From the NCBI GenBank assembly GCA_043814605.1, contig JBDRJV010000022.1, positions 21,305-85,304 of the forward strand: a stretch of DNA of 64,000 nt, given 5' to 3'. The position numbers and the translations under genes were made by a program. This document shows positions 36,084 to 58,201 of the stretch, piece by piece. This stretch comes from Candidatus Omnitrophota bacterium (GTDB lineage Bacteria; Omnitrophota; Gorgyraeia; B26-G9). The notes below the pieces were generated by a model. The model did not search any database. It was not told the DNA's origin and saw only the letters and a program-made list of their open reading frames with translations. How positions within the stretch are numbered: the stretch's first letter is position 1; each line of letters begins with the position of its first letter.

Positions 36084-36098
36084 GAATTGGGTTACCCA

Positions 36099-36806: not shown

Positions 36807-36817
36807 TATATTAAAAC

Positions 36818-38622: not shown

Positions 38623-40059
38623 TTATTTTCGTTCATAGATATCTTCAAATCGGACAATATCATCTTCCTCAATATAATCCCCGGTCTGCACTTCAATAAT
38701 TACTACTTCTTTATCAAAGGGATTAGTTATACGGTGTTTTTGTCCTTTAGCAATAAACACGCTTTCATTGGAATTTAGCGTCACGGAATCTTTTCCCGAA
38801 ACTATCTTTGCTCTGCCGGAAACAACCACCCAATGCTCACTGCGATGGTTATGCTTTTGCAAAGATAATTCCTGTTTCGGATTTACGATCACGCGTTTAA
38901 TTTTATAACCCGGGCCTATTTCAAAAACCGTATAATTCCCCCATGGCCTGTAAACAGTAGTGTGAAATTTTGTTAACGCAGATTTAGCCTGCTTTAATTT
39001 ATCCACAACAGTCTTTACATCTTGCGAACGTTCTTTATCAGAAATTAATAATGCATCCGGCGTATCAATAACAATCATATTTTCTAAGCCTACAGCCGCG
39101 ACAAAACGCTTTTCACTTTTAATGAATGAATTTTTAGTATCTACTCCATAAATATCACCGGAAAATACATTGCCGTTTTTATCTTTAGCGCAAACCTCAT
39201 GCACCATATGCCAGCAACCCACATCACACCAGCCGAAATCAGCCTTGATTACTGTACGACGCGGTGCCTTTTCCATTACCGCATAATCAATCGATGTCGC
39301 CGGGAATTTAGCAAAATCATTTTCATTAAACTCCACGCTATCTGTTTTTTGTTTTCTTTTTTTCCAAACATTTTGCGCTGTTTTCCAAACCCCGGGTGAA
39401 AAATTAGCTAAATTATCCGCAATAACTCCTGTATCAAATACAAATATCCCGCTATTCCATAAATATTTTTTGCTTTTTAAATATTTCTTGGCAACTGTTT
39501 GATTAGGTTTTTCTTTGAATTGGTCCACTTTAAAAACATTAGCTGAAATTTTTTTACCTAATTTTATATAACCGTACCCGGTTTCCGGATAAGTCGGGAT
39601 AATGCCAAAAGTCACAATATTGCCTATTGCTGCTGACATTATTCCGGTTTTAAGTAATTGCGCAAACCGCTTCTGGTTTTTAATCATATGGTCCGCAGCC
39701 AAACTAATCATAATTACATCTTCGCCAAAACGCTCCCGGGCCGCTAACACCGCTAAGGCAATCGCCGGAGCTGTATTACGGCTTAAAGGCTCAAGAATCA
39801 GCCAAGGTGAATTTTTAATCTTTAAATTGTGCCATTGTTCTTTTATGGAGAAATAAAGGTCTTTACGGGTACCAATAAGAATATTTGCCGCATTACCTTG
39901 CTGAGAACGGGAAATTTTTAAAACTCTGGCTATGGATTGCTGCAAAAGAGATTTACTGCCGAGTAAAGAATGTAATTGTTTGGGAAAATGTGACCGGCTC
40001 ATGGGCCAAAGCCGCATGCCTTCTCCACCAGCCATAATAAAATAAACGATTTTTTTCAT
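38623..40059 (-). CDS. manC: Bifunctional mannose-1-phosphate guanylyltransferase / mannose-6-phosphate isomerase (type II PMI, ManC/CpsB-like)
   Basis: N-terminal nucleotidyltransferase G-rich loop (FIMAGGEGMRLWPMSR) and a C-terminal cupin PMI domain. I placed the start at the internal Met MKKIVYF to avoid overlapping nadE. Confidence 0.85.
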   Translation of the reverse strand: MKKIVYFIMAGGEGMRLWPMSRSHFPKQLHSLLGSKSLLQQSIARVLKISRSQQGNAANILIGTRKDLYFSIKEQWHNLKIKNSPWLILEPLSRNTAPAIALAVLAARERFGEDVIMISLAADHMIKNQKRFAQLLKTGIMSAAIGNIVTFGIIPTYPETGYGYIKLGKKISANVFKVDQFKEKPNQTVAKKYLKSKKYLWNSGIFVFDTGVIADNLANFSPGVWKTAQNVWKKRKQKTDSVEFNENDFAKFPATSIDYAVMEKAPRRTVIKADFGWCDVGCWHMVHEVCAKDKNGNVFSGDIYGVDTKNSFIKSEKRFVAAVGLENMIVIDTPDALLISDKERSQDVKTVVDKLKQAKSALTKFHTTVYRPWGNYTVFEIGPGYKIKRVIVNPKQELSLQKHNHRSEHWVVVSGRAKIVSGKDSVTLNSNESVFIAKGQKHRITNPFDKEVVIIEVQTGDYIEEDDIVRFEDIYERK

Positions 40060-40087
40060 AGGCTGCCTTTCTAATATGATTGCTTTT

Positions 40088-41752
40088 TTAAAAATTTCGT
40101 TTGCAAGCAATCGGCATTCTCCATCCTGTGCCAAAAGCCTGGTCTGTAATTTTTACACCCGGGGCTAACTGCCTGCGTTTAAACTCAGCATTTTTAACTA
40201 AACGTAAAACCTTTAAAACCTTTTCTGGCTCAAAACCCGCATCAATGATTTCCTGGGCAGATTTATGCTCCTGAATACAATGAAACAGAATTTTATCCAA
40301 AACATCATAATCCGGCAAAGAATCCTGGTCTTTTTGATCCGGCCGCAATTCAGCTGAAGGAGCTTTTTTAATAATTTCCTGCGGAATGATATCTTTCCCT
40401 TTTTCTTGATTAATGTAATTCGCAATTTTATAAACTAAAGTTTTCGGGACATCCGCAATCACCGCAAACCCGCCGGACATATCTCCGTAAATAGTACAAT
40501 ACCCCACAGAAAGCTCGGATTTATTCCCGGTAGTTAATAATAAGGACTTATATTTATTCGATAAGGCCATGAGCAAATTACCGCGGATACGCGCTTGGAT
40601 ATTCTCTTCAGTTAAATCCGGCTTAACCCCCTGAAAAGATTTTTTCAAAGCCGCATCAAAAGCTTTCATTACCGGTTCTATTTTTATTACACTGGTTTTA
40701 ATGCCTAAATTATCCGCAAGCTTAAGCGAATCATCAATACTGCCCTGGCTTGAATATGGAGATGGCATTAATACTCCTAAGACATTATCCGCACCTAAAG
40801 CATCCACAGCAATCGCTGCAGTTAAAGCCGAATCAATCCCTCCGGATAAACCCAGGACAACTCTTGTAAAACCGCATTTACGCACATAATCGCGTGTCCC
40901 CAAAACCAATGCTTTATACGCTTCCGCTTCTTCTTTACACTCATGAGTAGTCTGTGTAGTATGCACGGTTACAGGAGCCGTAATCTTAGTAAAATCATAA
41001 ATCACAGTTTCCTCAACAAATCGTTTAGCCCGCGCAAGCAGATTACCTTGTTTATCAATAATACAACTGCCTCCATCAAAAACTAAATCATCATTACCAC
41101 CGATTTGATTAACATAAATAACATATGCTGCATACTGTTGCGCAATATTTTTTAACATTGATTCCCGCAGTTTCTGTTTGCTAATTGCAAACGGAGAAGA
41201 AGAAAGATTAATAATATATCCAATATTTGCTTCCTTAAATATAGCTAATGGATCCTCATGATAACCCCTGCGGTAATAACCCTGGACATGATTCCAGATA
41301 TCCTCACATATGGTTACGCCGATTTTTACTCCCTTAAGCTCAAAAAATCCCGGCTTTTTGGCTGGTTCAAAATATCTTTCCTCATCAAAAACATCATAGG
41401 CAGGCAAAAGACTTTTATGAAAAGCATTTTGGACTTTTCCTTGATTAATGAGTAAAGCAGAATTGTATAAAGGTTTCCCCTTAATTTCAGGCACAATACT
41501 TATTGTGCCCAATAAAAGGGCTGGCCCGGGGTTTATATCTTGGGAAATTTTATCTACAGCTTCCTGCGCAGACTGAATAAAACTATGGTTAAGCAGTAAA
41601 TCCCGCGGCGGATAGCCTAAAAGCGCCAGCTCGGCACTGATACACAAATCAACATTATTCGTTTGGGCATTTTTTACAGCGGCAATTATCTTTGCGCTAT
41701 TGCCTTCGATATCGCCGACAGTCATATTAAGCTGTAATAATGCAACCTTCAA
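40088..41752 (-). CDS. nadE: Glutamine-dependent NAD+ synthetase (N-terminal nitrilase/CN-hydrolase domain plus a NAD synthetase domain)
   Basis: The C-terminal domain has the PP-loop LGLSGGIDSAL. I predict a TTG start at 41752, preceded by GGAGAAAAA. The ORF track starts at 41830. Confidence 0.85.
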   Translation of the reverse strand: MKVALLQLNMTVGDIEGNSAKIIAAVKNAQTNNVDLCISAELALLGYPPRDLLLNHSFIQSAQEAVDKISQDINPGPALLLGTISIVPEIKGKPLYNSALLINQGKVQNAFHKSLLPAYDVFDEERYFEPAKKPGFFELKGVKIGVTICEDIWNHVQGYYRRGYHEDPLAIFKEANIGYIINLSSSPFAISKQKLRESMLKNIAQQYAAYVIYVNQIGGNDDLVFDGGSCIIDKQGNLLARAKRFVEETVIYDFTKITAPVTVHTTQTTHECKEEAEAYKALVLGTRDYVRKCGFTRVVLGLSGGIDSALTAAIAVDALGADNVLGVLMPSPYSSQGSIDDSLKLADNLGIKTSVIKIEPVMKAFDAALKKSFQGVKPDLTEENIQARIRGNLLMALSNKYKSLLLTTGNKSELSVGYCTIYGDMSGGFAVIADVPKTLVYKIANYINQEKGKDIIPQEIIKKAPSAELRPDQKDQDSLPDYDVLDKILFHCIQEHKSAQEIIDAGFEPEKVLKVLRLVKNAEFKRRQLAPGVKITDQAFGTGWRMPIACKRNF

Positions 41753-41941
41753 GATTTTTCTCCAATTATTGTGTAATGTGTTATGTGTCCCGCATGAAGT
41801 TAACTTTTTAAAACTTCTTCGGGATCCCAATCATTCGGGATAAAATGTAATGAAAAAACTTAACTTAAAAAATTTTATAATTAAATTTTTAATTTTACCT
41901 GTTACTTGCCGCTTGCAGCTTGTAGCTTTTTATCTATTCTA

Positions 41942-42991
41942 TCAGAAATGGCCCATTTGGCAAATTTCATCAATGATTTTATCAATATTGTAACTAAAAT
42001 CCCAATCCGGATAATGATTTTTAAATTTACGCACATCAGTTATATACCAGATATGATCACTGATACGGTTTTCATCCACATATTTATATACAGCTTTTTT
42101 TCTTAAAACTTTTTCTATTTTAGCTATCGCTTCTCGGATAGATATATTGGACTGCCTGGCTCCGCCGGTATTATAAACTTCCCCCTTACGGGGATTTTGA
42201 TGAAAATGCCAAAACATATTAACCAAATCATAACTATGAATATTATCCCGCACTTGCTTTCCTTTATAGCCAAAAATCGTATATTTAGTTCCTGTGGCAA
42301 TGCATTTAATCAAATAAGCTAAAAATCCGTGCAATTGCGTACTGCTATGCGCCGGACCGGTTAAGCACCCGCCGCGAAAAATTCCAGTATTAAGCTGAAA
42401 ATATTTTCCGTATTCCTGCACTAAAATATCTGCCGCTAGTTTTGATGCTCCGAATAAACTATGGCGGGAATTATCCACACTCATAGACTCATCAATCCCT
42501 TGATAGTATTTATGATCAGCCGGTAATTCATAACGCGTACCGGTTTCTATTAAAGGTAAGGTATTCGGATGGTCTCCATAAACTTTATTTGTCGAGGTAA
42601 AAATAAAACTCGCATTTGGGGAATAATTTCTAAAGGCCTCTAATAAAATCAAGGTTCCTTGCGCATTAATTAAAAAATCTGTTTCCGGCTCACGCACTGC
42701 CCAATCATGGCTGGGCTGGGCCGCAGCATGAATAATTGATTCAAATTCATGAATTTTAAAAATCTCTGCAATTTTTTCTTTATCACGAATATCCACATTA
42801 TAATGAATATATTTATCTTTAAAACTTTTTGCCAATTCCTGTCTTTGCCAATCCGTAGAGGCCTCAATGCCAAAGAAATACTTGCGCATATCATTATCAA
42901 CTCCGATTGCTTGATATCCACGCTCAATAAAAAATTTCACTGTCTCAGATCCAATTAATCCCGCTGAACCAGTAACAAGAATTTTTTTCAT
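41942..42991 (-). CDS. NAD-dependent epimerase/dehydratase (extended SDR, CDP-paratose-2-epimerase-like clade)
   Basis: N-terminal TGSAGLIGS, catalytic YxxxK (ASKLAADIL), and [10 protein letters not shown] near the C-terminus. Confidence 0.75.
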
Positions 42992-43069
42992 ATTCCCTTT
43001 ATAAACATTAATTGTGAAATAATTATTATTTTTATATCTCCAATAATTCTAGTTAGTAATGTGATTTTA

Positions 43070-44536
43070 TCACAAAATCTTTTTTATACCAAACATTAGA
43101 TAATTTTTGAGTTCTCTGAAAGATTTAATATTTTTAAGCAACTGACAGATATATTTTAAGCGACAGTGGAAACGAATATTAGCATAATTGCGAAATTTTA
43201 TTAATTCATTTCGGCTCATATAGTTAGTATTGATCATCGGATTCGTAAAATAATCGTGTTCTAAACTTGTTTCATTAATCAAACCTTGATTTTCACATAA
43301 ATTATACAGTTCTGTTCCCTCGTAAGGAACAGCCAGATGGAATTCATTAAAATCACAACTTAAATCAATAGCTAATTTCAATGTTTTTTCCATAGCTTCT
43401 TTCTTTTCCCAGGGAAAACCAAACATATAAAAACCGTAAGTTTTAAGACCTGCCTGCTTTGCTAAATTTACCGCATTAACTGCATCCTCAACGTTTGTTC
43501 CTTTTTTAATTTTATCCAGTGTTTCTTGCGTCCCAACTTCAATTCCTAAAGCAATCAACCAGCACCCGGCTGCTTTCATTGCCTGAAACATTTCTAAACT
43601 AACCGGCTTCGTTCTAGAATTCGCCACCCAGGATATATCAAGTTTTCTTTTCTTTATCTGCGCACAAAGATCCAAAACAAACTGTTCGTTAATTGTAAAG
43701 GTATCGGCCCTAAAGAAAAAATTCCGGATATGGTATCTTTCCATACATTCATAGAGTTCATCCAACACATTATTCACAGAACGCATACGTAGTTTTTTAC
43801 CGGAAATTATAGGAGTTAAACAAAAAATACAGGATGATGGACACCCGCGTGAAACTTGAATCGTAGCTTGAATTTCCCTTGTGTCCGGCCGAATATATAA
43901 ACTATTATCCATCAAATCCCGTGCCGGAAACGGCAGGGTATCTAAATTTTCCCGAAAATCTGTGGGTTTGTTTTTAATTAACTTTTCTTTCTGCCAATAA
44001 AGAATCCCCCTTACCGAGTGTGGGGGATAATTTTCATCAACAGCTTGAATAAGTTTATCAATTATTGTCTCGGCTTCGCCAAAAATAGCATAATCCATAA
44101 ATTTAAAATTTTCATGTTTAAACACCTCAGGTTTTAAGTTAAAAAATACTGCGCCTTTGGCAATGGTAATGATATCCGGATTAAATTCTTTGGCTTTCTT
44201 AAAAGCAATTATATCCTCAAGTAAAGTTGCGTTAGTAACACTGATCACTAAAACATCCGGTGAAAATTCTTTTAACTCTTGAAAATAATCATCCCAACCT
44301 AATTTTGCCCCCATATAATCACGGATTTTACATGCTTTGCCCTGTTGTCTTAAAACAGCAGCCATATAGCCTAAATCATTACAGGCACGCAGAGTTGTTG
44401 CACTGGAATCTGAGATATTAGACTGACAACGGTCTTCTCCCCGTTGATAAACTTTCCCTGGAGGATAAACTAAAAATACTTTTTTAATATTTTTTCTCTT
44501 CATCAGTAGATAATAATAATCACCGCAATTATCCAA
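43070..44536 (-). CDS. B12-binding radical SAM protein (class B rSAM, likely a methyltransferase)
   Basis: N-terminal cobalamin-binding Rossmann region, followed by CPSSCIFC (CxxxCxxC) and the rest of the radical SAM core. Confidence 0.8.
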   Translation of the reverse strand: MDNCGDYYYLLMKRKNIKKVFLVYPPGKVYQRGEDRCQSNISDSSATTLRACNDLGYMAAVLRQQGKACKIRDYMGAKLGWDDYFQELKEFSPDVLVISVTNATLLEDIIAFKKAKEFNPDIITIAKGAVFFNLKPEVFKHENFKFMDYAIFGEAETIIDKLIQAVDENYPPHSVRGILYWQKEKLIKNKPTDFRENLDTLPFPARDLMDNSLYIRPDTREIQATIQVSRGCPSSCIFCLTPIISGKKLRMRSVNNVLDELYECMERYHIRNFFFRADTFTINEQFVLDLCAQIKKRKLDISWVANSRTKPVSLEMFQAMKAAGCWLIALGIEVGTQETLDKIKKGTNVEDAVNAVNLAKQAGLKTYGFYMFGFPWEKKEAMEKTLKLAIDLSCDFNEFHLAVPYEGTELYNLCENQGLINETSLEHDYFTNPMINTNYMSRNELIKFRNYANIRFHCRLKYICQLLKNIKSFRELKNYLMFGIKKIL

Positions 44537-45369: not shown

Positions 45370-45435
45370 AAAAAAAACAGAAGATTAAAACCTTATCTTT
45401 CAAAGACTGATCGTATTATGACAAAAGTGATTAGG

Positions 45436-45846: not shown

Positions 45847-45900
45847 TATTTCCTTTTCTTTACATTAAAATGATGAGGAATATTATTGAGAGTAAGTTAC

Positions 45901-46935
45901 TTAAAAAAGCTTGATGTTATCTTTAAGCCAAGCATGTACATTTTTAAGCCCCACATTAACACTAGTTTCCGGAAACCAGTTTAATTCTTGTTTTATTCGC
46001 TTTATGTCTGTAATATAAACTTTTTGATCACAAATCCGGTCTTGGCCAAAACTAATGTACGGCTTGCGGCCTGTTTCTTGTTCTAATAATTTTATAAATT
46101 CAAGTAAAGATACAGAATTTTTTACTCCCCCTCCAATATTATATAATCTATATTCATATTTACTTTGAATAAATTTATCAAAAGCCAAAATTAAATTATC
46201 CACGTATAATAAATCTCGGACTTGTTTGCCATCCCCAAATATAGTGATTTTTTTTCCTAACAAATTAGCTAGCATAAACCAACTTACCCATCCCTGCTGG
46301 ACAAAACCAAATTGCCGGGGGCCATAAACACAACCTATTCTAAATATTGCTGCTTTCATCCCATAAAGTCTTGCATATCCCTGTACATACATTTCTCCGC
46401 TTAATTTACTGATGCCGTAAGGCGTATGCCCGCTTAAATCAACTGGTAATTTTTCATTTATTCCTTTAATGTTTTTAAAATCATAACGTGTTTTTAGCTT
46501 TTTTATAGGTTGAGCGCTGATATTTTTACCATACACATTATTGCTTGAACAATAAATAAATAACGGTTTGTTTTTTTTAATTTTTAAGCATTCCAGTACA
46601 TTTAAAGTGCCAAAAGCATTAATTGCAAAATCTTTTTGAGGATTATTTATCGAAGGAGAAATCCCGGGCTGTCCGGCAGCATGAATAACAACATCAACGC
46701 CGTTACCGATTGCCTTTAAAACATCTTTACTATTGCGTACATCACCTTTAACTCTGGTAATATTTTTAAATTTTCCTAAATAGTTCCAGGTATGTTCTAC
46801 TGTTTTTTTCTTTGAGCCAAATATTTTTGATCTGATTAAGCTATCTAAGATTATTACTTTTGCTTTTTTTTCAGCATAATATTGCGCACAATGTGAGCCG
46901 ATTAATCCGGCACCGCCGGTTATTAAAATTCTCAT
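45901..46935 (-). CDS. NAD-dependent epimerase/dehydratase (extended SDR), paralogous in type to the 41942 gene
   Basis: ITGGAGLIGSH, YGISKLSGEMY (YxxxK), and FGDGKQVRD. Confidence 0.8.
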   Translation of the reverse strand: MRILITGGAGLIGSHCAQYYAEKKAKVIILDSLIRSKIFGSKKKTVEHTWNYLGKFKNITRVKGDVRNSKDVLKAIGNGVDVVIHAAGQPGISPSINNPQKDFAINAFGTLNVLECLKIKKNKPLFIYCSSNNVYGKNISAQPIKKLKTRYDFKNIKGINEKLPVDLSGHTPYGISKLSGEMYVQGYARLYGMKAAIFRIGCVYGPRQFGFVQQGWVSWFMLANLLGKKITIFGDGKQVRDLLYVDNLILAFDKFIQSKYEYRLYNIGGGVKNSVSLLEFIKLLEQETGRKPYISFGQDRICDQKVYITDIKRIKQELNWFPETSVNVGLKNVHAWLKDNIKLF

Positions 46936-49553
46936 TGATCTCTCTGTCTGTATAACCTGTCTTGTTTTTCTAAACTAATTAGCCCGGCTTTTGTAAAAGC
47001 TTCTATTTTTACCAATTCTTGTTTATCAGTTTTATTAAACCACAAAATAATATCTGCTATTTTTTTATTCATATCCTTACCTTTAACAATCCCCTCTTTC
47101 CGTCTCAAACATTTATAAACTTGTTCATTAATCATAATTTCATTTTGTCTATCCACAACTAATTCTAATTGATCGTCTGTAATTTTTTTATTCATATCTT
47201 TACCTTTAACAATTCCTCCTTTTAATCTCCAGCATTTATAAACTTGTTCATTAATCATAATTTCATCTTCTCTATCCACAACTAATTCTAATTGATAGTT
47301 TGTTTTCCCTGGATTTAAATCTACGGATATTCTTTTATCAAGCCACAGTTTCTGACTGGAAAGGAAAAATACCGCGGAAATAGGGTCTTGGGTATAAGGC
47401 GTAATCTTCACTTGCCTGTCCTTTGTACTCATAAGGCCATTTTCTCTATCAAAAACCGCTGTTTTCTCTTTAATTTTATTTTTTACTTGTATTGATTCTT
47501 CATATTTGTAATTATAAAAATTGTTTATGTCGAACAAGGATTGCACTTGAGCTTTTCCATCAAAAAAACGCGAGAAGAAACTAGACGGGTAAACATTGGC
47601 CTCTATCCGCATTGTTCTAGTGCCATCCATTGGTTGGCCTTCTCCCAATTTAATATTAAGATGCAATGCCGGGATAAGCCCCATATATTTTATAATATAT
47701 TCAAAACTATCTCCTTCTTTAAAGTTAAAATTCATATTTAAAGCCGGCAATAAATCCGTTTTCTGATCCGGAGAGGAAATAACCGGGTCTTTATCAATAG
47801 TGACAGCGTCCGGATTAACAGGTTTTGACATCACTTTATAAACAGCTGTATTTCCAAAATCTCTTACGAATTTAAATCCAGGATTATTCTCTATATCCGG
47901 TACCTGACCTAAAACCCTTCCCCCTTCATAATTTAAATATTTATCTTTGTGCACCAGCACATAATCCGTGCCTAAAAACGACAATATGCCCGCTGTAGAA
48001 GAATCTTTTAAACCAATGATCTTCTGCATTACTTCATAGGCATATGTCTCCGGGATAGCCCCGTTAATTAATTTTTTTTGGTGTACCCGTTGATAAAATA
48101 ATATCGGACGGAAATCTGCCTCTATAGGATATTCCGCAACAACTGTATCTTCTGGTTGTAGTCTCAACCAATTATAGACTTCTGGTATACTCTGGGTATC
48201 TGTTATCGGTGACACATTTAAAAATTCAAAAAGCACTCCGCAACATAATAAGGTTACAACAACAAATTTCATTTTTTTACTGCTAAGCTTTTTTATAATA
48301 TTATTTAGTCCAAATCCGGCAAGTACACAAACAGCAATCATTACTACCCCACCCATACGTGCGTAATTACGAATCATCGGGAATATTTTAAATAAAAAAA
48401 ATGAAGGAAACGGGATAAAAAAAACATTTTTAATCCCCCAATAAGGGCTAAACGAACAAACCATAAAAGTAAATAAAGCAAAAACCCAAAAACAGATTAA
48501 AAAATCCGTTGCCGGATTTGATCGCCTGCTAATTCTTCTCTTTTTCCAGCTTTTATACCCCGCAAAAGCCAGAAAAATAGGGATAACTCCCAAATACAGA
48601 GACTGTTCCCCCCCGCTATTTTCACCATATAACGGCGTATCAACAAACACCTTGGTTATTTTTCCTAGTAATGGATGATACACTGTCGGAAGAAAATAGT
48701 TTAACGGCCGAGCAGCATCAGAAAAAAGCTGGCCAAAAGAACGGATAATCCCGGTTGTTTGGGCTTTACTTGAGCTGTAAATTACCATTTTTAGGTGACG
48801 CCAAATTTGAGGAAGCATTATCAAAGCAATAACCGTTAAACCCGCAATTGAAAGCTTCACGAACTGAAAAATTTCTTTTAACCTAACTTTTTGTTTTCTA
48901 AATACAGCATATCCAACATTAAAAACAAAAAATAATATAGTAAAGATACCCATGAAATAAACATAATAATAACTGCTAAACTGCCCGATTAATGCAAAAC
49001 AAACTCCGCAAATAAACGCGCTTCCATAAGTTCTTTTCTGATATAAGTTGAATAAGGAAATAATATAAAATAGCATCCAGTGCATATTGGATAAACAAAG
49101 ATGTTCCCAGGAACGAGCAAAATGGTAAGGGCTAAACATTAACACTAATCCCGAAAAAAAAGAAGCTAGACGATTTTTCGTGAAATAAAAAACAAGAGCA
49201 TACATCGCCAAGCCCGAAAGAAAAAAACTGCCTAATACCTGAATATTATACGCTGCTATCTCTCCCATTAAAATTGTTAAATACCTATTAAAAACTACCC
49301 AGACAGGATAAAGATGGGGATTATTCAAACCAAAAGGAGAAGATAAAATAGAAATAAAATCAGAAGGCAACCCTTTTAAGTAAGAATATTTCAACCACCA
49401 GAATTCCCAAATCCATGCTAACGAATCTGTGGCTGTGCCATAAATAGCCGAATTTAAACGAAAAATTACAGGAAAGGTAGCGCATATACTTAAAAATAGA
49501 TAAAGTAGTATAATAAAAATTTCTGCTTTAAAATTTTTTATCTTATTTTTCAT
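46932..49553 (-). CDS. Large polytopic membrane protein, GT-C-fold glycosyltransferase-like (ArnT/PMT/YfhO-type), with a C-terminal soluble region containing a 41-aa tandem repeat
   Basis: About 12+ TM helices with an acidic first loop (GTATDSLAWIWEFWW). The large C-terminal extracytoplasmic domain is followed by 2 x 41-aa repeats. Confidence 0.45.
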   Translation of the reverse strand: MKNKIKNFKAEIFIILLYLFLSICATFPVIFRLNSAIYGTATDSLAWIWEFWWLKYSYLKGLPSDFISILSSPFGLNNPHLYPVWVVFNRYLTILMGEIAAYNIQVLGSFFLSGLAMYALVFYFTKNRLASFFSGLVLMFSPYHFARSWEHLCLSNMHWMLFYIISLFNLYQKRTYGSAFICGVCFALIGQFSSYYYVYFMGIFTILFFVFNVGYAVFRKQKVRLKEIFQFVKLSIAGLTVIALIMLPQIWRHLKMVIYSSSKAQTTGIIRSFGQLFSDAARPLNYFLPTVYHPLLGKITKVFVDTPLYGENSGGEQSLYLGVIPIFLAFAGYKSWKKRRISRRSNPATDFLICFWVFALFTFMVCSFSPYWGIKNVFFIPFPSFFLFKIFPMIRNYARMGGVVMIAVCVLAGFGLNNIIKKLSSKKMKFVVVTLLCCGVLFEFLNVSPITDTQSIPEVYNWLRLQPEDTVVAEYPIEADFRPILFYQRVHQKKLINGAIPETYAYEVMQKIIGLKDSSTAGILSFLGTDYVLVHKDKYLNYEGGRVLGQVPDIENNPGFKFVRDFGNTAVYKVMSKPVNPDAVTIDKDPVISSPDQKTDLLPALNMNFNFKEGDSFEYIIKYMGLIPALHLNIKLGEGQPMDGTRTMRIEANVYPSSFFSRFFDGKAQVQSLFDINNFYNYKYEESIQVKNKIKEKTAVFDRENGLMSTKDRQVKITPYTQDPISAVFFLSSQKLWLDKRISVDLNPGKTNYQLELVVDREDEIMINEQVYKCWRLKGGIVKGKDMNKKITDDQLELVVDRQNEIMINEQVYKCLRRKEGIVKGKDMNKKIADIILWFNKTDKQELVKIEAFTKAGLISLEKQDRLYRQRDQ
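47052..47295. repeat. In-frame tandem duplication, 2 x 123 bp at about 90% identity, inside the 3' end of the GT-C-like gene
   Basis: Copy 1 is about 47052-47172 and copy 2 about 47175-47295. It encodes QLELVVDR(E/Q)xEIMINEQVYKCxRxKxGIVKGKDMNKKIxD twice. Confidence 0.8.
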
Positions 49554-49590
49554 TAGAGATTAAATTAAAAATTTTACACATTTTTATATA

Positions 49591-50646
49591 CTACTCTTTT
49601 TTAAAAATTGACTGAAAAAACTTTATTGAAATACCACTCACTAAAAAAAAATAAGCAACTGTTCCGGCAGTATCCAGCCATTTCTTTAACCCAATACTCC
49701 GCAAAATTGCGCATAAAATAAGCCCTGACATAAATGCTACAAGACATTTATCAGAAAATTTACAATCTAAAACCCAAATTATTTGCTCTTTAATCCAAAG
49801 AAATACCTTATTTATAATATAAAATATTTTATTGAAAATTAAACTGTTATCTCCAATATTTCTTCTTCCAATATCATCTTTTAATTTATTTAATAACACC
49901 CATGTCAATAAATTTACAATCATATTTGCAAATGCAACATTGATACAAACAAATAAAAAAGCATACTTTATCTGCACCACCAATGAATACGGCCCTTTCA
50001 GAGAAATATACCCCAAAACTAAGCAGAAAAAAGCACAAAATATAAACGAAAAAATATTATTTAAAATACTCTGCTTTATAGATAGATTCAATACTATTAA
50101 TTCAAATAAAAGCATAATCCACCATAAAATTACTATAAAAAAGAAAAAAATAATTCCTGGTAACAAAACTTTTTTTAAATCATTATTTCGAAGGACTGAA
50201 TCACGAAGAGTCAAAATAATATTTTCATTATGCACTTGACCCAGAAAATTCTTCGTGCGAACCATCAAGTTTTTAGGATTATTCGGATAGAAATGAACCT
50301 GCAACTTATTATTACCTTCGACCATTATTTCTTTAGGAACATAATAATAACGCGACAGAATACAATTTTCCGAACTATTACTAATTCTAAGTTCAAGTTT
50401 ATTATTATTTAGTTTAGCCAGTTCCGCATCTGTATTTTTAGCATCGAATTTAAGCTGTAACAAATAATCACTGACCTTTGGCAAACTTATTATAGTCTCG
50501 AACACTTCAGAATTTACTAAAAAGATATCTTCTTTTTTTACAATATTCTCATGGATCCCTGATGAGCAAAGTAAAAAAAATGCCACAGTAAAAACTGTTG
50601 CAAAAATTATGCTCAAAACTAAACTTATTTTTCTAGTTCTTTGCAT
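49591..50646 (-). CDS. Hypothetical membrane protein
   Basis: 351 aa, an N-terminal TM, an extracytoplasmic domain of about 140 aa, then about 6 TM helices. No motif recognised. Confidence 0.35.
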   Translation of the reverse strand: MQRTRKISLVLSIIFATVFTVAFFLLCSSGIHENIVKKEDIFLVNSEVFETIISLPKVSDYLLQLKFDAKNTDAELAKLNNNKLELRISNSSENCILSRYYYVPKEIMVEGNNKLQVHFYPNNPKNLMVRTKNFLGQVHNENIILTLRDSVLRNNDLKKVLLPGIIFFFFIVILWWIMLLFELIVLNLSIKQSILNNIFSFIFCAFFCLVLGYISLKGPYSLVVQIKYAFLFVCINVAFANMIVNLLTWVLLNKLKDDIGRRNIGDNSLIFNKIFYIINKVFLWIKEQIIWVLDCKFSDKCLVAFMSGLILCAILRSIGLKKWLDTAGTVAYFFLVSGISIKFFQSIFKKE

Positions 50647-52564
50647 CTATAGCTCCTTTTTTCTTAATATCTAGATATTTTAAATAAAATAAACAAGCAA
50701 TAACTGCCACAAAAAATATTATTAATCCCAAATAATAAAGCAGCTGTGGCCAAAAATATATTATTATTGTAAAATTTTCATTCAAACCCAATTTACTCGG
50801 TTCTACCCGCCAGCAATTTGCATAACCATTAGCAAAATAGTGCGGTAACTTTAACGGCTTTTTAAATAATAACTTTACATCTTCAAAACTAAATTTATAT
50901 TCACCTCTTGATTCTTTTACATGTAAATGCGGATAGTCTGCTACTATTTCATTAAACTCCTCTGGCTTGTGAATAGAAACTTGTGACTCATACAGCTTCC
51001 ACTGTTCATGAAAACTTTCACTAAATACAAGCCAAAAAGGATAATTTGCTCCTTTAATATTAACTAAATATTTTACCGGATTTATTTTTTTAAAGATTAT
51101 TTCCGGCTCTTGAGTTATGAATTGTAAATTAGGAGTTACAACTGGTTCTAATATTACCCACTCTATTTCAATAATACTATTTTTTACTTTTTCATAATGA
51201 TGTTTTCCCTTTCTCAGATCAATTATCTTTTGCAAAATAATTTCCTGATCATCTATGTGTTTTTCCCAATTTTTAAAACTATTCAGGGAAACTTCCTCTT
51301 CATCTATTTTTAAAAAAACAGGATTAAATTCAGAAAGCAAAGAAGTAAATTTTTCTTTTGTTTTAAGAGCCTTTAAAGGATAAGGGAGCCCTTCACTGCT
51401 TCTATTCAACTGGAAATTCCCTAATTTCAATTCAAAATATTCTTTTTCAAGTAAAAGTTTTTTTAGTTTTACTTCCAGTACTAAGGTCATATACTTAGAC
51501 TTATCATCCTGAAATATATTATTTATATCAATTACTATATTGTCATCGTTTTTTTTGTATTGCTCCGGGGAGAGGCTGAACATCTCTACTTTATCACTTA
51601 TATCCTCACTCTTATGAAAGATGGCATAAACTCTTACATCATAGGCTTCTTGTCCGGCTGCTTCACAATCAAAGGAAAGAGAATCTATTTTTCGCAATTG
51701 TTCTTCAGAAAACTGGATATAAACCGATAGCTGATTATTCTCATCCTTAGGAGCTGTTCTGGACTCGAGGTCATGTTTGCTTTCAGTATCGTGATAACAT
51801 AAAATTTTAAACTTTTCGTTCTGTTTTAATAGGGTATATCCCATATTATCGCTTTGGATCATTAATTCTGGATCTATTTTTTGCCTTTTAAGAAACTGAA
51901 TAGACTTTTCATTATAAAATTTTAGATTTTTTAACCTGAATATATATATTTCATTATCAATTTCACTCATATTTTTATTAAAAGAATGAATAAAAAATAT
52001 TTTTCTTAATATAAAACCTTTCGACACTTCATTAACCGATAATAACTCTTTTTTAATTTTATCAAGAATATAATATTGGCTGAACGTATCTATTCTAACA
52101 TAGCCATCAACATCGTTATCTCCCATATAATCAATACCCAAATTAGCATATATGCGTTGATCATTTTTATTCGGAATTTCCGCTTCTATCTCTGAGAAAG
52201 GGAATTCCTCCAGATTAATTTCCACGGATCGGCTTAAAGCAATGGTATTTCCTCCCGATAATAAAATATCCGCAAATTCTTTACGCGGTAAGCATTTAAC
52301 AAATTCTTTTGATTCATTTAAAGAGGTTTTCTGCCCTGCTTTAAAAAAAGAATTAATATCTTCTTTAGAAATAAACTCAATTTCCCAGTTTTTTATCTCA
52401 TCTCTCCAATCTGCCACTTTATCTTGATAATATATTCTAGAGTTTACAAATTTAGAATTTAGCTTAATTTTTAAATTATAAGGTTCAGTTTCCTGAGCAA
52501 ATACAACCACAGGGAATAATAATATAATCAGTACTATTTTTCTGCAAAAATTATTTTTTTTCAT
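50633..52564 (-). CDS. Hypothetical secreted or membrane-anchored protein
   Basis: 643 aa, N-terminal signal peptide and a C-terminal TM anchor. No motif recognised. Confidence 0.35.
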   Translation of the reverse strand: MKKNNFCRKIVLIILLFPVVVFAQETEPYNLKIKLNSKFVNSRIYYQDKVADWRDEIKNWEIEFISKEDINSFFKAGQKTSLNESKEFVKCLPRKEFADILLSGGNTIALSRSVEINLEEFPFSEIEAEIPNKNDQRIYANLGIDYMGDNDVDGYVRIDTFSQYYILDKIKKELLSVNEVSKGFILRKIFFIHSFNKNMSEIDNEIYIFRLKNLKFYNEKSIQFLKRQKIDPELMIQSDNMGYTLLKQNEKFKILCYHDTESKHDLESRTAPKDENNQLSVYIQFSEEQLRKIDSLSFDCEAAGQEAYDVRVYAIFHKSEDISDKVEMFSLSPEQYKKNDDNIVIDINNIFQDDKSKYMTLVLEVKLKKLLLEKEYFELKLGNFQLNRSSEGLPYPLKALKTKEKFTSLLSEFNPVFLKIDEEEVSLNSFKNWEKHIDDQEIILQKIIDLRKGKHHYEKVKNSIIEIEWVILEPVVTPNLQFITQEPEIIFKKINPVKYLVNIKGANYPFWLVFSESFHEQWKLYESQVSIHKPEEFNEIVADYPHLHVKESRGEYKFSFEDVKLLFKKPLKLPHYFANGYANCWRVEPSKLGLNENFTIIIYFWPQLLYYLGLIIFFVAVIACLFYLKYLDIKKKGAIDAKN

Positions 52565-52571
52565 CCTAAAA

Positions 52572-53234: not shown

Positions 53235-53282
53235 CTTTTTCCTTGCCTTCTTATGCTTTTAAAAGCCTGCCCCACTTTAATT

Positions 53283-55019
53283 TTAATTACTAGAAACATA
53301 TATTCGCGGCAGAAAATCATCCTCGTTCTCATAAACCGTTATGCTGCCCAGGCTATAGGGCTGCATAAAACCGGTAAATATTATCTTCTTTTCCTCAATT
53401 GTTTCTTTCTCAAGGAATCCGTACCATGCGATCAAATCCTCATTCACAACAACCTGCCCTACATTATAAATACCTAAAACTTTTTTATAATTACTTAAGC
53501 CTATTCCTTTGTACAAAAGATTAAAATAATGATGCGTTCCAATAAACGGTTTATTAGTATTCTTTAGCACCGGATCCAATCCTGTATATTTTTTATTGTT
53601 ATAATTACTTAAGCACACCTGATAATTAGCTGTCCCCGGCAAGCTTAAAATCCGTTGTTCAAAATTTTTGCTATTTACAAATTCTCTAAACTGCTTATAT
53701 TCTGTCTTGTCTTTATATTTCCTTGAACCATAACCAAAATTCTTAATTTTATATTCAGGAATTATATTCCCCGTCAATAGCGGCACGGAACAAAATAGTA
53801 AATATAATGCAAAAATAAACGAAATAAATTTATAATGCCTGCGCTCTTTAATGTTATTCATTATAAATAATAATAAAATTGATAATATAAAAACATAAAG
53901 AATGCCGAATTTTTCTACCGGTGTTTTAAAAATTTTAAAATAAGGCACATGAATAAATAAAAAATTATAAATGCCCCCAAAAGGCGCAGCATTACCCTTT
54001 ACGAAAAATAATACAATCAACAAAATTCCTAATGTGCCCATGGGAAGCAAATTTCTTTTTTTTCGGTCATAAATAAACAAAAAATAGAATATTATTACAA
54101 ACATTGGCACTAAGGTAATTATCCCCGCAAATACCGTGTTATACCAATATGCAAAAAAATCATAAGATGAGTCATCGGAAATCAATAAAGTCAAGGAAAA
54201 CATTTTAGCAATAATAGGATAAAAATCAGTTACTACAGTATTTAACAGGTCTTTAGCTATAGATAAAGGATATATACTCTTCCCCACAGATTTAAGATTC
54301 AAATAAAGGGTCATTATCCACCAGGAATTAAATACGAAAAATGATACTAATAAAATAACAAGTTTCTTAACTATCTGGATTAAAATAATTTTTTTGTTGT
54401 GATAAAAAGAACCCAAAACCACTGAAAGCAAAACGGAAAAAAATATAATCGCAAAAAGCGGCGGGTTTGAAAAGGAAAAAGAAAAGCAAGCTGAAATAAA
54501 ACCGAAGAAAAAACATAGCCTAAAATTATCATTATAATATTTTAGAATGAGCCATAAAAATAAAGGCATTACTCCTATGGAAAAAACATTGTTTTGATTA
54601 ATACAAATCAAGTGATATAAAATAAAAGGATTAACCACATAAAAAAAAGATACCATAAATGCAACAAAAGGTCTTGCTTTTAATAGCCTTGATAGCATGA
54701 ACATTGCAATAAATGGCAGAAAATATATTGAAAATATCATTGTAAAATTAGCGGCAACAACACTACCCGTAAATTTTTCAATAAGCGAAAGAATAACAAT
54801 ATTTAAAGCAAAAGCATGAGGAGACATGTTTATAACCCCTGCACCGAAAGTAGAATACCAAGCAAAACAGGAATTTTTAAGGTGAGTTGTAAAATCCAAA
54901 ACAAAATCTGCTTCTCCCCCAAGGATAAGACAGCCATCAAAATAATATGGCAATAATGCCAGGAAAAAAATAGCTCCTCCTAGCATCAAAAAAACATTAT
55001 AGGCATTAATTCTTTTCAT
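53283..55019 (-). CDS. Polytopic membrane protein, possible GT-C-fold glycosyltransferase or polymerase
   Basis: 578 aa, about 12 TM helices, an acidic first loop (LILGGEADFVLDF), and a C-terminal extracytoplasmic domain. Confidence 0.4.
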   Translation of the reverse strand: MKRINAYNVFLMLGGAIFFLALLPYYFDGCLILGGEADFVLDFTTHLKNSCFAWYSTFGAGVINMSPHAFALNIVILSLIEKFTGSVVAANFTMIFSIYFLPFIAMFMLSRLLKARPFVAFMVSFFYVVNPFILYHLICINQNNVFSIGVMPLFLWLILKYYNDNFRLCFFFGFISACFSFSFSNPPLFAIIFFSVLLSVVLGSFYHNKKIILIQIVKKLVILLVSFFVFNSWWIMTLYLNLKSVGKSIYPLSIAKDLLNTVVTDFYPIIAKMFSLTLLISDDSSYDFFAYWYNTVFAGIITLVPMFVIIFYFLFIYDRKKRNLLPMGTLGILLIVLFFVKGNAAPFGGIYNFLFIHVPYFKIFKTPVEKFGILYVFILSILLLFIMNNIKERRHYKFISFIFALYLLFCSVPLLTGNIIPEYKIKNFGYGSRKYKDKTEYKQFREFVNSKNFEQRILSLPGTANYQVCLSNYNNKKYTGLDPVLKNTNKPFIGTHHYFNLLYKGIGLSNYKKVLGIYNVGQVVVNEDLIAWYGFLEKETIEEKKIIFTGFMQPYSLGSITVYENEDDFLPRIYVSSN

Positions 55020-55053
55020 TTTAATTTTGTATATAAAATTGCGATTGGTTATT

Positions 55054-55827: not shown

Positions 55828-55861
55828 TAAAACATTTTCTTCCTACATTTTGTTATTTATT

Positions 55862-57301
55862 TTATGACAACTGCCCCTTGGTCCCACCCCTCATAAATAC
55901 ATAAAAAGCTATTTTAAACAGTTTTAAATCCTCTTTAAATCTTCGCGGGATTAAAAACCAGATTCTTATTCTGCGCAACAACCACATAGGGTTAATAAAA
56001 AATCTTCTGTACGCCATCTTTTTAATATTTACTAAATCCTCCAAAGTAGATCCCTTTGGAATAAATAAAGGCCAAATCCCGCGAAAACCTTTTCCTAATT
56101 CACCGCTAGCATATTTATCGATAATATCCTCGGGTATCATCTTGTGTTTTATCGCGTAATTAAAAACTTCTGTACCGGGAAAAGGCATGGTGATATGAAT
56201 CCCGATTACATCAGCTTTAACCTTACTGCCGATTTTAACCGTATCTAGCATTTCCTTTCTGGTCTCTGTAGGAAAACCAACCATTAAAAATAAATTGCTC
56301 ATAATCCTATATTTTCTGCATAATTCAACCGCTTTGGTAATTTGCTGATCATCAACTTTTTTCTTAATAATTTCGTTTCTGATCCTTTCATTCCCAGACT
56401 CAACTCCAAAATAAAGTTCATAACAGCCTGCTCTTCTTAATGCTTTTGCCACTTCATCATCAACTACACTTGCCCTAGTTGATGCAATAAACTTTATTTT
56501 AAGCTTCCGGTCAATAACTTCCTGGCAAAAATCCATGATATATTTTTTATTTAAAGTAAAACAATCATCATTAAACCCGTAACTACCCTGGCATTGGTCA
56601 TAAACCTGCTCCATCTCATCAACAATATTCTTTGCAGAGCGCAAGCGTAACTTAAATCCTATTACTGGGATACAGCAAAAAATACATTTAAAAGGGCAAC
56701 CTCTTGAGCCTAATATCCCTGCTGAAGGAACCTCGTACTTCATCTGTTCTTCACGTAGATATATTTCCGGCTTGATCAGATGCCTTGCCGGAAAAGGCAA
56801 GCTATCTAAGTCTTCTGTGATTTTCCCGATTATCGGTCCCCTTACCTTCTCTCCCTTTTTAATTTTACTTACAATCTCCTCAAAAGTATGCTCTCCCTCT
56901 CCGATAATCCCGAAATCAAAAACAGGAAATCTTTCCAGAAATGTTTTATCGCAACATAAATGCACCCCGCCAAGGCCTAAGTGAAAACTATCGCCGAATT
57001 TTTCCTTTATTGCTTTAGCCAAACTAACAGCTGAAGCAATACTCGTTGTCATTGAAGAAATCCCAACTACCATTGGTTTTTCATTTTTAATTGTTTGCAA
57101 TATATCCGGCAAGGTTATTCCTTCCGGAGCCACATCAATGATTTTTACCGAATGCCCAAATCTCTCCAAGAATGCGGCCATGTAAAGAATACCTGTGGGG
57201 TAAAAAGATTTTTCATCTCCCCCATGGCCTCTAAACTTTTCTTTTTCTTTTTCATCTTTATAAAGAATAATTGGACTGTGTATTAGAATAACATCAACCA
57301 T
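55862..57301 (-). CDS. B12-binding radical SAM protein (class B rSAM)
   Basis: N-terminal cobalamin-binding domain, then GSRGCPFKCIFC (CxxxCxxC). Confidence 0.8.
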   Translation of the reverse strand: MVDVILIHSPIILYKDEKEKEKFRGHGGDEKSFYPTGILYMAAFLERFGHSVKIIDVAPEGITLPDILQTIKNEKPMVVGISSMTTSIASAVSLAKAIKEKFGDSFHLGLGGVHLCCDKTFLERFPVFDFGIIGEGEHTFEEIVSKIKKGEKVRGPIIGKITEDLDSLPFPARHLIKPEIYLREEQMKYEVPSAGILGSRGCPFKCIFCCIPVIGFKLRLRSAKNIVDEMEQVYDQCQGSYGFNDDCFTLNKKYIMDFCQEVIDRKLKIKFIASTRASVVDDEVAKALRRAGCYELYFGVESGNERIRNEIIKKKVDDQQITKAVELCRKYRIMSNLFLMVGFPTETRKEMLDTVKIGSKVKADVIGIHITMPFPGTEVFNYAIKHKMIPEDIIDKYASGELGKGFRGIWPLFIPKGSTLEDLVNIKKMAYRRFFINPMWLLRRIRIWFLIPRRFKEDLKLFKIAFYVFMRGGTKGQLS

Positions 57302-58188: not shown

Positions 58189-58201
58189 TTTTCTACCCTT
58201 T

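Follow-up and report, generated by a model that had tools for sequence, protein, structure and literature searches.

Surface antigenicity is strongly determined by pentofuranose side chains, whether of ribo-, xylo- or arabinofuranose, and the mycobacterial pathway equivalent to the systems that add them is a drug target. The closest described system is that of Citrobacter youngae O1/O2, in which alpha-pentofuranose side chains are added in the periplasm (Kelly, Duong, Nothof, Lowary & Whitfield, PNAS 2024, PMC11127046). There orf15 encodes a polyprenyl-phosphate phosphoribosyltransferase with a HAD phosphatase domain, orf14 an EmrE/ArnE-like transporter with four transmembrane (TM) segments and orf12 a GT-C glycosyltransferase with a beta-rich C-terminal carbohydrate-binding domain; orf13, present in serotype O2 only, encodes a GalE-like short-chain dehydrogenase/reductase (SDR) that acts at C3 and converts lipid-linked ribofuranose to xylofuranose. 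The roles of orf12-orf15 were shown genetically or biochemically, the flippase excepted, and such systems were stated to be widespread, some of them with several epimerases or GT-Cs (PMC11127046).

The locus analysed here lies at positions 38623-57301 of a 64,000-nucleotide stretch (the window) of contig JBDRJV010000022.1 from the metagenome-assembled genome of an uncultured Candidatus Omnitrophota bacterium. It comprises genes for a UbiA-fold synthase (UbiA), a small transporter of 136 aa, two GT-C proteins (873 and 578 aa), two extended SDRs (SDR-344 and SDR-349) and two radical S-adenosylmethionine (SAM) enzymes (rSAM1 and rSAM2), together with accessory and flanking genes. From the sequence it is read, with moderate confidence, as a system of the three-component pentofuranose type for glycosylation in the periplasm, with unusual tailoring enzymes and placed in a hypervariable surface-glycan locus. 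The locus is a variant of a known system and not the mycobacterial decaprenyl-phospho-arabinose (DPA) pathway, and since PMC11127046 already describes three-component pentofuranose systems, the concept is not new. With this locus the scheme is seen in Omnitrophota, a phylum for which metagenomes are nearly the sole source of knowledge. The accessory enzymes that accompany the synthase differ from DprE1/DprE2 and include radical SAM enzymes, DUF362 Fe-S proteins and extended SDRs.

The likeness to C. youngae O2 starts with the gene order. Along the locus the GT-C gene with its beta-rich C-terminal domain is followed by an SDR, the small transporter and the phosphoribosyltransferase, as in orf12-orf15. 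The synthase, transporter and GT-C genes form a contiguous and co-directional string (44503-49553) with short gaps or overlaps, and the stop of the 873-aa GT-C gene overlaps the start of SDR-344 by 4 nt (ATGA). According to the open reading frame (ORF) coordinates all genes from 57301 to 38623 lie on the minus strand and either overlap or are separated by 7-111 bp. Common to both systems are a UbiA-fold polyprenyl-phosphate 5-phosphoribosyltransferase (PPPRS) that carries the motifs NDxxDxxxD and R..E, an EmrE/ArnE-like transporter of four TM segments, a GT-C whose C-terminal domain is rich in beta structure and an auxiliary extended-SDR epimerase; both are set in a surface-glycan locus beside manC. 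The differences are also several. The window synthase is a stand-alone protein of 288 aa with no HAD phosphatase fused to it or encoded nearby; the window GT-Cs are two, one of them split, and belong to YfhO/DUF6311-related and unnamed families; the C-terminal domain is a barrel-like DUF3108 and not an immunoglobulin-like carbohydrate-binding module; a radical SAM gene is translationally coupled to the synthase gene; the SDRs are TyvE-like, one of them lacking the catalytic Tyr; and the host is an uncultured member of the Omnitrophota.

A preliminary description of this DNA had compared the locus with the mycobacterial DPA pathway (Rv3806c, Rv3807c, DprE1/DprE2, Rv3789, Emb/Aft) and with the Arn pathway. 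The core logic of a phosphoribosyltransferase, a flippase and a GT-C holds, but the three-component pentofuranose system is the better analogue. With the DPA pathway the locus shares a homologous first enzyme in which the ligands of phosphoribosyl pyrophosphate (PRPP) are kept, a lipid-linked pentofuranose that would serve the GT-Cs, and the presence of AftD and AftA among the best structural matches of the latter. It differs in that DprE1 (FAD oxidase, FAD_binding_4) and DprE2-type classical SDRs (adh_short) had no match among the ORFs of 23-64 kb, nor had the PAP2 phosphatase; the flippase candidate is EmrE/ArnF-like and not GtrA-like, and Emb-type arabinan polymerases are absent. The Arn pathway has in common with the window a small ArnE/F-like transporter and a GT-C for a polyprenyl-monophosphate pentose donor, which in the window is a predicted one. 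Its synthase, however, is a GT2 enzyme (ArnC) using UDP-Ara4FN, whereas that of the window is a PRPP-dependent UbiA-fold protein, and the window transporter reached only 65.8 of the 99 bits required by the ArnF model. With ArnA, ArnB, ArnC and ArnD absent, an Arn-type Ara4N pathway was rejected.

A fourth relevant system is CsbB/GtcA/YfhO; its GT-C is YfhO, which works outside the membrane with a C55-P-sugar as donor (PMC5836110, PMC8035078). Relatives of the 873-aa protein carry YfhO Pfam matches or that name, but the CsbB/GtcA/YfhO system has a GT2 synthase working on a UDP-sugar, a GtrA-type flippase and a teichoic-acid acceptor in monoderms.

The synthase and the small transporter

The UbiA protein scored 276.9 bits on the NCBIfam model NF008977 'decaprenyl-phosphate phosphoribosyltransferase', whose curated equivalog cut-off is 234 bits. 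Models of decaprenyl-phosphate phosphoribosyltransferase (DPPRS) gave 165-277 bits with this protein, whereas any other NCBIfam prenyltransferase model gave at most 61 bits. Among solved structures, Mycobacterium tuberculosis Rv3806c (8j8j) matched residues 5-283 (E 3.4e-43, 151.7 bits), compared with only 26.6 bits for archaeal UbiA and DGGGP synthase. An identical protein bears the NCBI name decaprenyl-phosphate phosphoribosyltransferase.

The PRPP/Mg2+ ligands of Rv3806c are R22, K28, Y70, N73, D77, K87, R90, Q135, Y138, K143 and Y157; R22, N73, D77, K87, R90, Y138 and K143 bind pyrophosphate/Mg, K28 and Y70 contact the 5'-phosphate, and the phosphoribose-binding sites, which are not common to prenyltransferases, mark this enzyme apart (PMC10994848). 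Nine of these ligands are identical in the window protein, where R10, K16, Y54, N57, D61, K71, R74, Y122 and K127 stand for R22, K28, Y70, N73, D77, K87, R90, Y138 and K143, respectively. Q135 is replaced by Asn and Y157 by Phe, the latter being a natural mycobacterial variant. D65 corresponds to Rv3806c D81, a residue outside the ligand list of PMC10994848 and part of the conserved NDxxDxxxD motif. In an alignment of 20 homologs the ligand positions were invariant or nearly so. The protein is by its sequence a decaprenyl/polyprenyl-phosphate phosphoribosyltransferase in predicted activity and, as had been proposed, groups with DPPR synthase and not with quinone or heme prenyltransferases. An ordinary aromatic prenyltransferase of the quinone, heme O or chlorophyll type, which would make the locus unrelated to lipid-linked sugars, could account for the Pfam result, a generic UbiA match and nothing else. 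Such an identity is extremely improbable and was rejected on the model scores, the Rv3806c match and the retained phosphoribose contacts equivalent to K28 and Y70.

The synthase family is very large: of the candidates scored, 5267 proteins belonged to it at E<=1e-20, and 592 matches were confirmed in species-representative genomes of many phyla, among them many uncultured ones. (Comparison loci and proteins are given L and P numbers.) The gene downstream of UbiA could be called in 63 loci; it encoded a DUF362 protein in 17, an extended SDR in eight, mostly from Omnitrophota, and a DprE1-like protein in only two. In the Omnitrophota loci the UbiA-SDR pairs are followed by PMT_2/TMEM260-type GT-Cs with tetratricopeptide repeats. 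After the closest UbiA homolog (63 % identity) comes an SDR gene, and another homolog (55 %) lies between GT9 and DUF362 genes. Two plasmids were also found to carry the synthase: one of Lactococcus, with DPPRS, a HAD phosphatase and GtrA, and one of Chondrinema, with DPPRS, an FAD oxidoreductase, an SDR and GT39. These neighbourhoods indicate that the logic of synthase, transporter and GT-C is general, while the tailoring enzymes vary.

DUF362 is the commonest immediate neighbour of the phosphoribosyltransferase clade (17/63 loci, L006-L085) and is absent from the window. Such proteins are encoded at 8313-9611 of L020, 8644-9459 of L053 and 3205-4287 of L090, the first of them with a 4Fe-4S ferredoxin domain. 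In all three loci DUF362 co-occurs with GT9, and L020 and L053 also contain Wza-like export genes. The DUF362 protein is a candidate partner enzyme of the synthase clade. The one phage match to UbiA was an unannotated 6.6-kb fragment.

The 136-aa protein matched Pfam EamA (35.6 bits; cut-off 28.2) and remained below the NCBIfam equivalog cut-offs of both ArnF and ArnE, the latter with 39 vs 92 bits. By these scores it is classed as a relative and not a member of the ArnE/ArnF families. EmrE is its best solved relative (E 2e-4), and four hydrophobic segments are present, so that the earlier suggestion of a 4-TM flippase candidate resembling small multidrug resistance proteins was borne out as to family and topology; flipping is a putative role. 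Homologs of this protein are encoded directly after UbiA homologs or at most ~4 kb downstream in L015, L022, L051, L048, L071 and L017.

The two GT-C proteins

AlphaFold2 models were computed from alignments of 45 (873-aa family) and 38 (578-aa family) homologs. The model of the 873-aa protein (predicted local distance difference test, pLDDT, 87.5; predicted TM-score, pTM, 0.82) matched STT3, AglB, PglB, DPY19, AftA and ArnT in Foldseek with E values from 1.8e-9 to 5e-5. For the 578-aa protein (pLDDT 88.2, pTM 0.90) the best Foldseek match was the mycobacterial arabinofuranosyltransferase AftD (6w98; E 1.6e-7, TMq 0.55), followed by OST, DPY19, PglB, AftA and ArnT. The catalytic acidic residue of GT-C enzymes is located in the first extracytoplasmic loop after TM1. 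At this place the 873-aa family has Asp in 35 and Glu in 10 of its 45 sequences (position 43), and Glu36 is invariant in the 578-aa family (38/38). Distant homology between the two families is shown by hhalign (probability 97.4 %, E 1e-11, 471 columns). According to the models both proteins have the GT-C fold, which agrees with the initial GT-C-like calls. Relatives of the 873-aa protein carry precomputed matches to YfhO or DUF6311, but for the window protein the DUF6311 match was not reproduced by hmmscan.

The C-terminal domain of the 873-aa protein was recognized as DUF3108 (E 1.6e-11). Its Foldseek matches, namely DUF1849, YmcC-like and LprG, are barrel-like folds that bind lipids or glycolipids. 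A tandem duplication of 123 bp with 89 % identical copies coincides with the low-confidence segment 786-829 of the model (~41 residues, pLDDT <50) and accounts for the ~45 extra residues of the window protein in comparison with its relatives of 810-846 aa.

The second GT-C is split. Residues 483-636 of the 643-aa protein matched the columns of the C-terminal extension in the 578-aa family alignment (hhalign 99.8 %, E 4e-29), and residues 418-628 share 47 % identity with residues 707-918 of P0248, a fused homolog of 924 aa whose first ~590 residues are 53 % identical to the 578-aa GT-C. The homology to this fused protein indicates that in the window the enzyme has been divided into the 578-aa and 643-aa parts, with the 220-aa gene between them. 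In profile comparison the 643-aa protein did not match the 873-aa family. Of the three envelope proteins originally listed as hypothetical, the 643-aa one is thus part of a GT-C, while the 351-aa and 220-aa ones keep that label. All three have N-terminal hydrophobic segments, and none had a Pfam match, the 351-aa protein not even at E<=5. Homologs of the 351-aa protein stand at the equivalent position upstream of the 873-aa GT-C in L002 (140 bits) and L004 (130 bits), and a homolog of the 220-aa protein has the position equivalent to its own in L002 (86 bits), the gene being conserved between the halves of the split GT-C. The candidate GT-C beside the Lactococcus DPPRS had no profile similarity to either window GT-C family (probability <1 %).

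The three-component reading would combine these proteins as follows. On the cytoplasmic face the UbiA-fold enzyme would transfer 5-phosphoribose from PRPP to polyprenyl phosphate, as its homology and conserved ligands predict. The 5-phosphate would then be removed by a phosphatase encoded outside the locus, which is a gap in the scheme. The lipid-linked ribofuranose may be tailored by rSAM1, through C-methylation or an AprD4-like dehydration, and epimerised by one of the TyvE-like SDRs, most simply at C2 to give arabinofuranose. The 4-TM EmrE/ArnF-like protein would flip the donor to the periplasmic face, a role suggested by homology and by its recurrent adjacency to UbiA. Finally, the 873-aa and the split 578-aa + 643-aa GT-Cs could pass the pentofuranose to an envelope acceptor, with DUF3108 of the former as a likely acceptor- or lipid-binding module. 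ManC, the methyltransferase and rSAM2 may serve the same glycan.

Radical SAM enzymes, extended SDRs and their possible substrates

rSAM1 matched Radical_SAM with 75.1 bits and contains CPSSCIFC (CxxxCxxC core). Its B12-binding score of 32.8 bits is barely over the cut-off of 32.1, its class B status being borderline, and the ortholog in L020 has no B12-binding match. The likely true start of rSAM1 is the ATG at 44503, which overlaps the UbiA stop (TGATG). The best NCBIfam models were HpnJ (181 bits), BchE (157) and AprD4 (120), all far below cut-off, which for AprD4 is 500 bits, and AprD4 (6fd2) was the best solved relative (E 8e-28). In rSAM2 the class B domain set is present (B12-binding 72.3, Radical_SAM 76.5 bits). 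Its best NCBIfam models were ApyD, then HpnJ and BchE, again below cut-off; AprD4 was the closest solved structure (E 8e-20), and the closest homolog among the fetched loci is encoded in L005 (295 bits). HpnJ and BchE are non-methylating, and ApyD is an enzyme acting on peptides that are made by ribosomes and modified after translation (RiPPs). By NCBIfam, with all matches far below cut-off, neither radical SAM protein is equivalent to any characterised methylase family. The C-methyltransferase role that the preliminary description had suggested for them is unproven, the nearest solved structure being a diol dehydratase.

AprD4 and AprD3 are a radical SAM 1,2-diol dehydratase and an NAD(P)H reductase, which together carry out the C3' deoxygenation of a sugar in apramycin biosynthesis. 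The window resembles this pair in that AprD4 is the closest solved structure for both radical SAM enzymes and an SDR-fold gene stands immediately after rSAM1. The differences are that the match is limited to the radical SAM core and the C-terminal part, that the adjacent SDR lacks the catalytic Tyr and that the substrate would be a lipid- or nucleotide-linked sugar and not an aminoglycoside.

Orthologs of rSAM1 were found directly after UbiA in the Planctomycetota locus L020 (518 bits, 50 % identity) and 6 kb from UbiA in L053 of Nitrospinia (441 bits). A metagenome scan with rSAM1 gave one irrelevant locus, with 22 % identity. It is tentatively proposed, as a possibility that we regard as decidedly unlikely, that rSAM1 acts directly on the polyprenyl-phosphate-linked ribofuranose, possibly with the 5-phosphate still on, and with the Tyr-less SDR as its partner, giving a C-methylated, deoxygenated or radical-epimerised donor. 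We know of no described precedent for radical chemistry on a lipid-linked sugar donor. If true, it would extend the chemistry of lipid-linked donors and provide a new envelope sugar and enzymes for glycoengineering; if the radical SAM enzyme does not act on a lipid-linked sugar, the locus is nothing out of the ordinary for its known class and had been anticipated.

B12-binding radical SAM genes are recurrent in related loci, with up to three per Omnitrophota glycan locus (L001, L002, L005) and more in L020. In the three Omnitrophota loci they are accompanied by genes of SAM methyltransferases. Such recurrence suggests that these anaerobes commonly tailor sugars with radical SAM enzymes.

Both SDRs are closest to CDP-tyvelose 2-epimerases and are not DprE2-like. 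SDR-344 matched TaTyvE (9rl0) with 220 bits (E 4e-64), and the best PDB matches of SDR-349 were two such epimerases (135 and 129 bits). TyvE/RfbE (1orr, 9rl0) is the best solved relative of both, and the window proteins retain its GxxGxxG NAD-binding motif, the YxxxK Lys and the Arg equivalents. Measured against the reference catalytic triad T124, Y164 and K168 of TaTyvE, SDR-344 alone retains the triad (S/Y/K), with a canonical YxxxK. In SDR-349 HSLFGASK aligns with HSPYGCSK and Phe180 takes the position of Tyr164. A sequencing error was rejected as the source of this change since Phe is a trait of the SDR-349 subfamily, which has 646 representatives at E<1e-30 and shows this residue in 38 of the 48 members sampled. 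The VAM sugar-binding segment of TyvE is replaced in both proteins, by PGI in SDR-344 and by PSH in SDR-349, and the paratose/tyvelose pathway genes RfbF, RfbG, RfbH and RfbS are not near the window SDRs. TNK is kept in SDR-349, whereas the window copy of SDR-344 alone reads SNN (SSNNVYG vs STNKVYG in four Omnitrophota orthologs and in TyvE). In TaTyvE, which uses CDP-glucose as substrate, Lys126 of TNK binds the pyrophosphate of the nucleoside diphosphate (NDP) and the K126A mutant is inactive (PMC13098431).

Several observations weigh against a single three-component pathway using all these enzymes. HAD and PAP2 phosphatases had no match in any ORF of 23-64 kb (Pfam/NCBIfam). The rSAM1-UbiA link was seen in only 3 of 81 loci (the window and 80 genome loci retrieved by way of UbiA). 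The catalytic Tyr of SDRs is missing from SDR-349, and members of its subfamily (P0297-P0446; motif HSLFG[AV]SK) carry fused GT2, GT11, WecG/TagA and methyltransferase domains; the fusions to cytoplasmic Leloir glycosyltransferases indicate nucleotide-sugar substrates. NDP-sugar chemistry is likewise indicated for SDR-344, the orthologs of which in L001 and L004 precede a sugar-1-phosphate nucleotidyltransferase gene. The main counter-evidence comes from L002, the closest relative (58 % identity in the GT-C): the same two GT-Cs, the accessory genes, SDR-344, NadE and ManC are there, whereas UbiA, the transporter, rSAM1 and SDR-349 are missing from the 22 kb covered. The GT-Cs, kept there without the cassette, do not depend on its adjacency and may use another lipid-linked donor.

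The L002 locus bears on the possibility that two unrelated modules are adjacent in the window. The GT-C block (578/220/643/351/873 and SDR-344) would then be a conserved Omnitrophota system acting on a polyprenyl-phosphate hexose made elsewhere, and the inserted UbiA/transporter cassette would feed some other transferase with its gene in another part of the genome. In addition to the whole block being retained in L002 (as 590/229/907/353/830), GT2 genes that could encode polyprenyl-P-sugar synthases lie near the GT-C ortholog in L004, L005 and L001, and the GT-Cs that accompany UbiA in other Omnitrophota loci are of the PMT_2/TMEM260 type and not of the window families. Against such a division, no other lipid-sugar synthase is encoded in the tightly packed, co-directional string of the window, the gene order mirrors orf12-15 of C. 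youngae, a member of the 873-aa family adjoins UbiA in the Glassbacteria locus L047, and structurally the 578-aa protein is best matched by an arabinofuranosyltransferase. We consider the two-module explanation unlikely and keep to the three-component reading, in which the GT-Cs would use the UbiA product.

The subfamily fusions of SDR-349 raise another alternative, namely that rSAM1 and SDR-349, as well as SDR-344, leave the lipid-linked pentose alone and modify nucleotide sugars for glycosyltransferases of the cytoplasm, their substrate being for example a CDP-hexose or the GDP-mannose that ManC supplies; the UbiA, transporter and GT-C part would then add plain ribofuranose. The kinship of both SDRs with NDP-sugar 2-epimerases fits this explanation, as does the frequency of B12-binding radical SAM and methyltransferase genes in UbiA-less glycan loci of the relatives. 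However, the UbiA stop and the rSAM1 start overlap, the rSAM1 ortholog of a different phylum adjoins UbiA, and no Leloir glycosyltransferase gene that could use a nucleotide sugar was found in 38.6-57.3 kb (Pfam/NCBIfam). The loss of the pyrophosphate-binding TNK Lys from the window SDR-344 points in the same direction, but as an observation from a single genome it has little weight. On balance this alternative is tenable, though rather doubtful, and modification of the lipid-linked donor is retained in the three-component scheme.

The kinship with 2-epimerases has also to be considered for a true DPA-type pathway, in which a single NAD-dependent TyvE-like 2-epimerase would replace DprE1/DprE2 and the GT-Cs would be arabinofuranosyltransferases. 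C2 epimerisation is the regiochemistry needed to turn ribose into arabinose, the phosphoribosyltransferase is homologous to Rv3806c, and the best fold matches include AftD and AftA. GT-C fold similarity, however, does not report the donor sugar, the identity of which is not readable from sequence; the GalE-like SDR of Citrobacter acts at C3 and not at C2; and the genes for DprE1, a DprE2-type SDR and an Rv3807c-type PAP2 protein are missing from 23-64 kb. A pathway of this kind appears improbable.

The cassette, base composition and flanking genes

The features of the locus are collected in Table 1. Pfam and NCBIfam searches confirmed every item of the gene inventory given in the preliminary description, with matching coordinates and strand. 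In a scan for sigma-70-like promoters the total of sites did not exceed that in shuffled controls, and the match upstream of rSAM2 is weak evidence. Terminator predictions were likewise not above shuffled controls, with no intergenic terminator-like sites on the coding strand.

Table 1. Coordinates (window numbering) of the features in the glycan locus
Feature	Position	Strand	Basis
ManC (mannose-1-phosphate guanylyltransferase/mannose-6-phosphate isomerase)	38623..40134	-	NTP_transferase, ManC beta-helix and MannoseP_isomer domains
Glutamine-dependent NAD+ synthetase NadE	40088..41830	-	CN_hydrolase and NAD_synthase domains
SDR-349, atypical TyvE-related extended SDR	41942..42991	-	PDB matches; Phe180 replaces catalytic Tyr
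rSAM1, class-B-like radical SAM enzyme, 488 aa from TTG start	43070..44536	-	Radical_SAM, marginal B12-binding
Predicted polyprenyl-phosphate 5-phosphoribosyltransferase (PPPRS/DPPRS-type UbiA fold), 288 aa	44503..45369	-	NF008977, Rv3806c match
Small EmrE/ArnE/F-like transporter, candidate flippase, 136 aa	45436..45846	-	EamA; 4 predicted TM segments
SDR-344, TyvE-like extended SDR with canonical YxxxK	45901..46935	-	9rl0 (TaTyvE) match
Predicted GT-C (~residues 1-590, YfhO/DUF6311-related) fused to C-terminal DUF3108, 873 aa	46932..49553	-	AlphaFold2 and Foldseek
In-frame 123-bp x 2 tandem duplication in the DUF3108-coding part	47059..47303		TRF score 399, 89 % matches
Polytopic membrane protein without assigned function, 351 aa	49591..50646	-	Five hydrophobic segments
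Periplasmic protein with C-terminal TM anchor, 643 aa; detached C-terminal module of the second GT-C	50633..52564	-	hhalign
Secreted or anchored protein without assigned function, 220 aa	52572..53234	-	One N-terminal hydrophobic segment
Predicted second GT-C, polytopic, 578 aa, without Pfam family	53283..55019	-	AlphaFold2 and Foldseek
Class I SAM-dependent methyltransferase, 257 aa	55054..55827	-	Methyltransf_23 (E 1e-14) and related models
rSAM2, class B (B12-binding) radical SAM enzyme, 479 aa	55862..57301	-	B12-binding and Radical_SAM (Pfam)
Best sigma-70-like promoter match, just upstream of rSAM2	57352..57379	-	TTGACT-16-TAAAAT, extended -10 TG, 10/12 positions

In each of four distinct related contigs (L001, L002, L004 and L005) the ortholog of the 873-aa GT-C is followed by one of SDR-344. 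In L002 the latter is directly followed by NadE, which shows that the transporter/UbiA/rSAM1/SDR-349 segment (41942-45846) is an insertion or a deletion. The Omnitrophota backbone is syntenic: GT-C/DUF3108 and the SDR are followed by ManC, a pilin-like gene, ParA-CBM48 and further genes, while the gene content between and upstream of the backbone genes varies from genome to genome in the Omnitrophota contigs. ManC orthologs (750-790 bits) occupy the equivalent relative position in L001, L002, L004 and L005, and ManC is the conserved distal flank of a variable glycan locus. NadE is at the equivalent position in L002 (831 bits); it is a housekeeping passenger without an assigned pathway role.

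The cassette is mobile on evolutionary time scales, as its presence and absence in gene content demonstrate. The locus had been described as AT-rich and on that ground as acquired by horizontal transfer. An AT-richer part does exist at 49.6-55.8 kb (GC content 0.28-0.30; GC content at third codon positions, GC3, 0.24-0.28), and the only other one is at 57.5-64 kb (GC 0.28-0.31); much of this AT-richness lies in codon positions 1 and 2 and so reflects amino-acid composition. The 38.6-47 kb part that includes the UbiA cassette has GC 0.35 and GC3 0.30, and the cassette itself (GC 0.338, GC3 0.296) is indistinguishable from the upstream block (GC3 0.31 +/- 0.03). Compositional evidence for transfer of the cassette, whose GC and GC3 equal those of the backbone, was therefore rejected. 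At the cassette boundaries a search for repeats gave nothing beyond chance matches in AT-rich sequence, and a mobile element was not indicated.

The segment immediately upstream of the glycan genes, 57490-63020 (-), encodes a DUF4956 membrane protein, a VTC-domain protein and a secreted right-handed beta-helix protein of 1360 aa; these are followed by a further methyltransferase gene at 63043-63972. On the other side, 31907-38590 (-) contains genes that are extra between ManC and the pilin-like gene in comparison with the related contigs: two for single-domain response regulators, two for membrane proteins of ~240 aa without Pfam matches and one for a 1303-aa protein with a transglycosylase domain. 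A cyclic di-GMP-I riboswitch (RF01051, 31423-31591 (-), 36.9 bits, gathering score 35) was recognized in the gap of 776 bp that lies upstream of the gene at 30729-31130, which encodes a type IV pilin-like protein (N_methyl motif).

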